Of a DNA stretch of 64,000 nt, positions 34,089 to 34,118 are shown one piece after another (positions within the stretch are counted from its first letter, which is position 1; every line of letters begins with the position of its first letter). The DNA lies in the NCBI RefSeq assembly GCF_003334355.1, contig NZ_QOWP01000012.1. One strand, written 5' to 3'. The position numbers and the translations under genes were made by a program. The notes beneath the pieces were generated by a model. The model saw only the letters and a program-made list of their open reading frames with translations, was not told where the DNA came from and searched no databases. This stretch comes from Escherichia coli. GTDB taxonomy: Bacteria > Pseudomonadota > Gammaproteobacteria > Enterobacterales > Enterobacteriaceae.

Positions 34089-34118
34089 TTCTGCATGGTT
34101 ATGCATAACCATGCAGAA
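34089..34118 (+). terminator. 30-bp perfect palindrome directly after the rhtA stop; candidate stem-loop terminator or protein-binding site
   Basis: ttctgcatggttatg|cataaccatgcagaa is its own reverse complement; followed by a T-rich tract. Confidence 0.5.

Follow-up and report, generated by a model that had tools for sequence, protein, structure and literature searches.

The rhtA–dps intergenic region and its palindrome

The 64-kb stretch of Escherichia coli DNA analysed here (the window, whose numbering is used unless stated otherwise) carries rhtA and dps on the same strand, with a 30-bp perfect palindrome in the region between them. Annotated E. coli genomes (RefSeq) confirmed the identity of both genes, and the encoded RhtA is 100% identical to that of K-12 (tblastn). 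The features of this region that are considered below are as follows.

33193–34080, plus strand: rhtA (threonine/homoserine exporter), from the list of open reading frames and RefSeq annotation; the hairpin lies in the 3′ UTR of its transcript
34089–34101, plus strand: 5′ arm of the RNA stem, UUCUGCAUGGUUA, 13 nt with 5 G–C pairs, from RNAfold and from compensatory changes at the alignment columns
34102–34105, plus strand: loop UGCA, self-complementary, from RNAfold; other genera have non-palindromic loops of 3–9 nt
34106–34118, plus strand: 3′ arm of the RNA stem, UAACCAUGCAGAA, from RNAfold and from compensatory changes
34119–34127, plus strand: short, U-poor tail UUUCUCGCU, holding the primary rhtA 3′ terminus listed in TRS Supplementary Data 3 (PMC10687069)
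34119–34196, plus strand: pyrimidine-rich tract with C in excess of G (19 C and 9 G in 78 nt), a candidate Rho-utilisation (rut) region
34379–34882, plus strand: dps, from RefSeq annotation

The palindrome, TTCTGCATGGTTATG|CATAACCATGCAGAA at 34089–34118, is exactly self-complementary over 30 bp, as a first-pass annotation of this DNA had reported, and stops at that length because the flanking bases, 34088 and 34119, are T and T. It begins 8 nt after the rhtA stop codon (TAA, 34078–34080) and ends 260 nt before the dps ATG (34379), in agreement with the spacing of about 260 bp given earlier. No other perfect palindrome longer than 14 bp is found within the window. A chance origin was rejected: about 6e-5 perfect palindromes of 30 bp would be expected in the window (64000 × 4^-15), and the 30-mer occurred in 0 of 200 shuffles.

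On the K-12 chromosome (NC_000913.3) the palindrome occupies 849172–849201, and the whole rhtA–dps intergenic region is identical to that of K-12 MG1655 bar one base. This base, at 34335, is G here and A in K-12; it follows closely on the TATACT hexamer of the dps promoter and is, presumably, near the dps transcription start. Of 5426 complete E. coli genomes, 5366 contain the exact 30-mer, each at a single locus, since the two "places" counted per genome are one site read on both strands.

Among the orthologue genera compared, the gapless palindrome is specific to Escherichia, where perfection is kept throughout at 30–34 bp. The repeat is gapless there because the 4-nt loop, TGCA, happens to be self-complementary, which, given a perfect stem, is a 1-in-16 event. 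A longer perfect palindrome of 34 bp, ATTTCTGCATGGTTATGCATAACCATGCAGAAAT, is found 1–40 nt after the rhtA stop in an E. coli-clade genome (L002), and E. albertii (L003) carries one of 32 bp with a compensatory C–G to T–A change.

Two smaller symmetric elements lie further towards dps. A dyad, TTATGCAAAAGCAT (ATGC-AAAA-GCAT), is located at 34160–34176, 61 nt downstream, and has 86% identity to the palindrome centre; the adjoining CATATT (about 34171–34176) forms a small conserved island in an alignment of the spacer from 30 species. The second element, GAACACATAGCCGGTGCTATACTT at 34310–34333, contains the inverted repeat ACATAGC-N5-GCTATAC, which overlaps the dps −10 region. It may resemble the MntR box reported for dps.

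An RNA hairpin at the published rhtA 3′ end

In the rhtA-sense RNA the palindrome folds into a 13-bp stem with a 4-nt loop, the geometry that had been read from the sequence. The folding-energy calculation proposed in the first-pass annotation gives −18.7 kcal/mol (RNAfold), with a z-score of −6.0 against dinucleotide shuffles, and 5 of the 13 pairs are G–C. The earlier view that such symmetry is unusual for a simple terminator proved overstated. The perfection comes down to the 1-in-16 loop, and −18.7 is ordinary for a 3′-end hairpin: the tables of a published 3′-end survey (PMC10687069) give −20.1 for the terminator of dps next to it. The description of the U-tract as weak was borne out. The stem is followed by UUUCUCGC (UUUCUCGCUACUUUU in the longer form), a tail that starts with UUUCU in K-12 and lacks the run of about 6–8 U right after the stem that marks a canonical terminator, and the site was not called as a terminator in a consensus promoter/terminator scan. 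A scan of window positions 32000–36000 against Rfam at a permissive E-value returned no family at the palindrome.

A role in rhtA termination, also raised at the outset, gains support from that survey (TRS; Nat Commun 2023, PMC10687069), whose supplementary tables list for MG1655 a "Primary" rhtA 3′ terminus on the minus strand, with a peak at 849163–849170 and a dominant position at 849165. In window coordinates the peak spans 34120–34127 and the dominant position is 34125, which is 7 nt past the last stem base (34118). The sheet for LB RNAtag-seq gives this terminus a signal of 0.91, a rank of 700 and adjusted p-values of 0, 0.185 and 0.0028, so that it is significant in two of three libraries. 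According to the same tables, the sequence upstream of the terminus was folded into the identical hairpin (−18.7, longest U run 4), and Supplementary Data 4 assigns a 46-nt 3′ UTR to rhtA.

Two other resources gave no corresponding signal. The curated Term-seq set of Adams et al. (2021) holds no 3′ end near 8489xx–8494xx and no bicyclomycin-defined region of Rho termination at the hairpin; this absence is weak negative evidence because rhtA is weakly expressed. The TERMITe tables contain no match at the rhtA 3′ end.

Conservation and covariation of the stem

One RhtA search of species-representative genomes yielded 80 loci from the Enterobacteriaceae, covering Escherichia, Citrobacter, Salmonella, Enterobacter, Kosakonia, Buttiauxella, Atlantibacter, Franconibacter, Pantoea and other genera, from which 67–78 distinct sequences, depending on the analysis, were compared. 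The order rhtA–dps is kept in almost all of the 80 loci, with a spacer of 270–400 nt, and a hairpin, mostly of 11–16 bp, is found 5–14 nt after the rhtA stop at nearly every one. The sequence of the stem, in contrast to its pairing, differs between genera through compensatory substitutions, as can be seen from the arms.

Escherichia, Citrobacter, Salmonella and several Enterobacter-like species: CTGCATG / CATGCAG
Kosakonia: CAGCATGAG / CTCATGCTG
Buttiauxella: TACCGTGG / CCACGGTA
Atlantibacter: CCGCATC / GATGCGG
Franconibacter: TTCGCCCG / CGGGCGAA

A double change from C–G to U–A (T–A in DNA) is also seen within Escherichia, in E. albertii. When 67 distinct sequences were aligned with MAFFT, without structural input, RNAalifold recovered an 11-pair helix with compensatory changes at all 11 pairs. 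For a 15-pair helix, 86.4% of the cells are paired, as against 30–47% when the 3′ partners are slid by 1–3 columns, and the covariation score is 0.505, compared with ≤0.16 for the slid helices and 0.198 for shuffled alignments; none of 500 shuffles scored as high.

Outside Escherichia the loops measure 3–9 nt and are non-palindromic. The Citrobacter element reads CATGGTT-TGCAT-AACCATG, and it is one extra A in Escherichia that renders the repeat gapless. Along the spacer, aligned across 30 species, strong conservation in the distal half is confined to the block of the two arms; the other conserved block is the proximal 100 bp with the dps promoter. The base of the stem, (U)AUU...AAU(A), together with the AU that follows it, is conserved in sequence as well as in pairing.

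Strand asymmetry of the stem imperfections

Imperfect pairs in the stem carry information about the molecule in which the pairing is maintained. A G·U pair in the sense RNA corresponds to an A·C mismatch on the other strand and to a G·T mismatch in DNA. Stems were located with a finder that scores Watson–Crick pairs only and penalises G·T and A·C alike. In the rhtA sense, the internal stem mismatches comprise 31 G·T/T·G and 4 A·C/C·A; once shared ancestry is collapsed into distinct sequence contexts, 17 G·U stand against 4 A·C (one-sided binomial p = 0.0036). When the two strands are folded, the rhtA-sense RNA has the greater stability in 53 sequences and the lesser in 14, and 11 show no difference. 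An asymmetry of this kind is expected only under selection in the rhtA-sense transcript, which points to an RNA hairpin rather than a double-stranded DNA dyad or a protein half-site. We interpret the palindrome, with high confidence, as the RNA 3′-end hairpin of the rhtA mRNA and not as a DNA or protein site.

Dps, cruciform and operator readings

The same repeat has been discussed in the Dps literature as a DNA element. Antipov et al. (2017; PMC5553809) place the 30-bp inverted repeat at the centre of a Dps footprint lying 216–281 bp upstream of Pdps, one of the two primary contacts that Dps makes with the dps regulatory region; deletion of dps lowered reporter activity 1.5-fold, and a topological role was suggested. 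The palindrome could accordingly form a cruciform, or present Dps or other nucleoid proteins with a branched or bent target, and so affect the topology and activity of the dps promoter, and the gapless, perfect 30–34 bp repeat of Escherichia offers the best case for extrusion. Outside this genus, however, spacers of 3–9 nt and G·T mismatches disfavour cruciforms, and the pattern of mismatches differs between the strands in a way that the symmetry of double-stranded DNA leaves unexplained. Dps itself has little sequence specificity and binds thousands of sites (PMC5553809).

The primers used by Melekhov et al. (2015; PMC4433220) were also located in the window. Their distal fragment, F1-R1, spans about 33950–34163 and contains the repeat. 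The primer dps_F2 starts at 34111, inside the 3′ arm, so that the proximal fragment, F2-R2, lacks an intact palindrome; it is this fragment that Dps bound with higher affinity in vitro (PMC4433220). The bands protected in the distal fragment, about 113 and about 175 bp from F1, map near 34063 and 34125, where they flank the repeat and do not cover it. Together, these observations make a DNA element as such very unlikely in our view, and a selected cruciform, which the first-pass annotation had proposed as one option, was rejected on the covariation, the G·U asymmetry and the restriction of the gapless repeat to Escherichia. The Dps contact at the repeat may be incidental. That the sequence serves twice, as an RNA hairpin for rhtA and, in Escherichia, as a DNA structure recognised by Dps or other nucleoid proteins, seems to us highly improbable; if true, it would contribute to the positive feedback reported for Dps on its own promoter.

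The other option raised at the outset was a binding site for a dimeric protein, here an operator of a sequence-specific dimeric transcription factor with the half-site CTGCATGGTTATG. The dyad symmetry is perfect in E. coli, and the outer arms, TTCTGCATG/CATGCAGAA, are invariant in Escherichia, Citrobacter, Salmonella and several Enterobacter-like species and form the best-conserved block of the distal intergenic region. In the other genera, however, the half-site gives way to the unrelated and again self-complementary CAGCATGAG, TACCGTGG, CCGCATC and TTCGCCCG, so that across the 67–78 orthologue sequences it is not conserved. The centre still pairs, although a factor would not need a self-complementary centre, and the symmetry is unequal between the strands (the 17 G·U and 4 A·C contexts given above). 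The proposed search for further half-sites found no other copy with 0–1 mismatch in the 64-kb window; with 2 mismatches there are 5 copies where 1.7 are expected, which is unremarkable. The 30-mer itself is confined to one locus per E. coli genome. In the literature we found no report of a sequence-specific factor binding the hairpin site, the only return on rhtA/dps binding being an unrelated table of the rhtA/ompX promoter. An operator is the least probable of the readings considered and was rejected on the covariation and the G·U asymmetry. The combination that the first-pass annotation regarded as speaking against a protein site, a clean rhtA 3′ end and no occupancy, is found in its first half, namely the terminus listed in the TRS tables, but not in its second: non-specific occupancy by Dps has been reported.

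Physically, the repeats that Dps contacts (PMC4433220, PMC5553809) and the rhtA hairpin are the same sequence; the difference is that those authors see a structural target in DNA, whereas the comparison made here shows selection on the sense-strand RNA. Repetitive extragenic palindromes (REP/BIME) share with the hairpin the position after a stop codon, outside the coding sequence, and the ability to stabilise upstream mRNA. They form a dispersed family, however, and the rhtA palindrome is a single copy per genome; its sequence is also unrelated to the REP consensus. A REP element was rejected on the occurrence of one locus per genome in 5366 E. coli genomes.

Formation of the rhtA 3′ end

If the palindrome is the 3′-end hairpin of rhtA, transcripts may be ended there in more than one way. 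Tails that follow the hairpin in the orthologues are U-poor, with a median of 3–4 T in 10 nt and AAUAUUCCCC as a typical example. To place them on a scale, we applied the classical hairpin-plus-T-tract discriminant with modern energy parameters and with the closing pair enforced. The formula is reportedly that of d'Aubenton-Carafa et al. from 1990. In K-12 the rhtA hairpin scores −4.9, against +24.5 for dps, +32.8 for ompX and +20.9 for opgE in the same window. Of the 80 orthologues, only 7 have a score above 0, and the median of the set is −26. Over the 78 nt downstream of the hairpin, 70 of the 76 distinct orthologues have more C than G (median C/G 2.25); elsewhere in the rhtA–dps spacer, C makes up 18.8% and G 15.9%. 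We read this skew as a hint of a rut site and no more. In the most distant genera sampled (L045, L067 and L070), canonical terminators with a hairpin and a U-tract occur at the same position, which supports a 3′-end-forming role for it.

These features recall a class of 3′ ends described by Dar and Sorek (2018), in which Rho-dependent E. coli transcripts end precisely just after stable stem-loops that have no U-tract, are followed by an enrichment of C over G, and protect against PNPase and RNase II. The rhtA element resembles this class in several respects: a precise steady-state 3′ end (as listed in the TRS tables) comes right after a stable stem-loop, the hairpin has no A-tract upstream and, across the orthologues, no U-rich tail (K-12 only partly, with UUUCU), C exceeds G directly downstream, and the sizes of stem and loop as well as the folding energy resemble those of intrinsic terminators. 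It departs from the class in that Adams et al. (2021) report no Rho region at rhtA and in the partial U-tract of K-12, so that the K-12 element may be a hybrid. Canonical intrinsic terminators, of which the window holds those of dps (about 34924–34953) and of ompX/opgE (32281–32308), provide the other comparison. The rhtA hairpin likewise sits just past a stop codon, with the listed 3′ end 7 nt beyond it, but its stem is A–U-rich (5 G–C among 13 pairs), UUUCUCGC takes the place of 6–9 U, and its discriminant of −4.9 (orthologue median −26) contrasts with +21 to +33 for its neighbours.

We consider it most likely, though with moderate confidence only, that the hairpin is the protective stem-loop of a transcript terminated largely by Rho, with some intrinsic termination in E. 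coli. We envision that, as rhtA is transcribed from the plus strand, these 30 nt would fold into the 13-bp, 4-nt-loop hairpin 8 nt past the stop. RNA polymerase would be stopped mainly by Rho, loading on the untranslated, C-rich and G-poor RNA just downstream; the nascent 3′ extension would then be trimmed back to the hairpin by exonuclease, and the hairpin, by blocking 3′→5′ exonucleases, would leave a precise and stable rhtA 3′ end. In K-12 the UUUCU tail would probably allow some direct, leaky, hairpin-driven termination as well. The combined effect would be to keep rhtA transcription out of the dps promoter, 220 bp further on.

The principal competitor is a plain leaky intrinsic terminator, in which the hairpin and UUUCU release polymerase 7–9 nt past the stem without Rho or trimming. 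The 3′ terminus listed in the TRS tables lies at the canonical release distance of 7 nt, which fits intrinsic termination equally, so that the E. coli data do not separate the two routes. The K-12 discriminant is only marginally negative, 4 U occupy the first 5 tail positions after the terminal A–U pairs of the stem, and the silence of Adams et al. (2021) on a Rho region at the hairpin would be in keeping with this reading too. The comparison between species, however, argues against it. The U-tract is not conserved even within Escherichia, with tails UAUUACACGA and AUUCCGUUAC in L005, L006 and L003, and most genera lack one altogether, as the 7 of 80 positive scores and the median of −26 reflect; what is conserved is the hairpin and then the C-rich tract, and even in the E. 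coli window a simple terminator scan passes over the site. We thus regard purely intrinsic termination as possible but rather doubtful. A further role for the RNA beyond 3′-end formation, such as docking of a ProQ-type protein or a read-through switch that couples dps to rhtA, could be read from the sequence conservation of the stem base, (U)AUU...AAU(A), and the following AU, and from the position of the hairpin directly upstream of a heavily regulated promoter. Yet no Rfam family matches the hairpin, A–U-rich stem bases are common in 3′ hairpins, and structural constraint alone predicts slow change at stem positions; we give this idea very little credence. A largely Rho-terminated transcript with a protective stem-loop remains our preferred account of the rhtA 3′ end.

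Significance for rhtA and for Dps studies

Both the repeat and the 3′ end at this locus have been published, which makes the feature already known: the rhtA hairpin is an ordinary and known element, and its importance beyond a tidy annotation is small. What is new is the covariation across genera and the strand asymmetry, through which the inverted repeat of the Dps literature is reassigned to an RNA function. A repeat that had been read as a structural target in DNA is in this way given a function, and rhtA gains a defined 3′ end together with the 46-nt 3′ UTR. If its Rho dependence holds, the hairpin would be a well-conserved, covariation-supported addition to the U-less 3′ stem-loops that end Rho-dependent transcripts. 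For studies of Dps–DNA specificity it calls for caution, the repeat being under selection at the RNA level and not at the DNA level. There is also a practical side: engineering of rhtA for threonine and homoserine export is widespread, and leaving the hairpin out of such constructs may alter mRNA stability or cause read-through into dps.

Neighbouring hairpins in the window

Three further hairpins were recorded in the window. The first, CCGTCACCCCGA-CAGTA-TCGGGGTGACGG at 25698–25726 (NC_000913.3 about 857564–857592), is a perfect 12-bp, G+C-rich hairpin just past the ybiT stop, where ybiT and ybiU converge. On the ybiT side it lacks a T-tract and its discriminant is −31; it may be another U-less 3′ stem-loop like that of rhtA.

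A second, AAAAATCCGCCCCGAGAGGCGGATTTTT at 32281–32308, is found where opgE and ompX converge and has the look of a bidirectional intrinsic terminator. Published 3′ ends are listed there on both strands, at 851011(+) in Adams et al. (2021) and at 850979(−) in the TRS tables (PMC10687069). Sub-threshold Rfam hits to rnk_pseudo and RNAI overlap this element and are probably mere hairpin matches.

The third hairpin, TGCGTAAGTATTACGCA, is on the minus strand at 32997–33017 (NC_000913.3 850273–850293, plus strand), in the divergent region between rhtA and ompX. Term-seq 3′ ends classed as "orphan" in Adams et al. (2021) coincide with it, about 157 nt upstream of ompX and just before the small ORF yliM; the ompX leader may be terminated prematurely or processed at this point.
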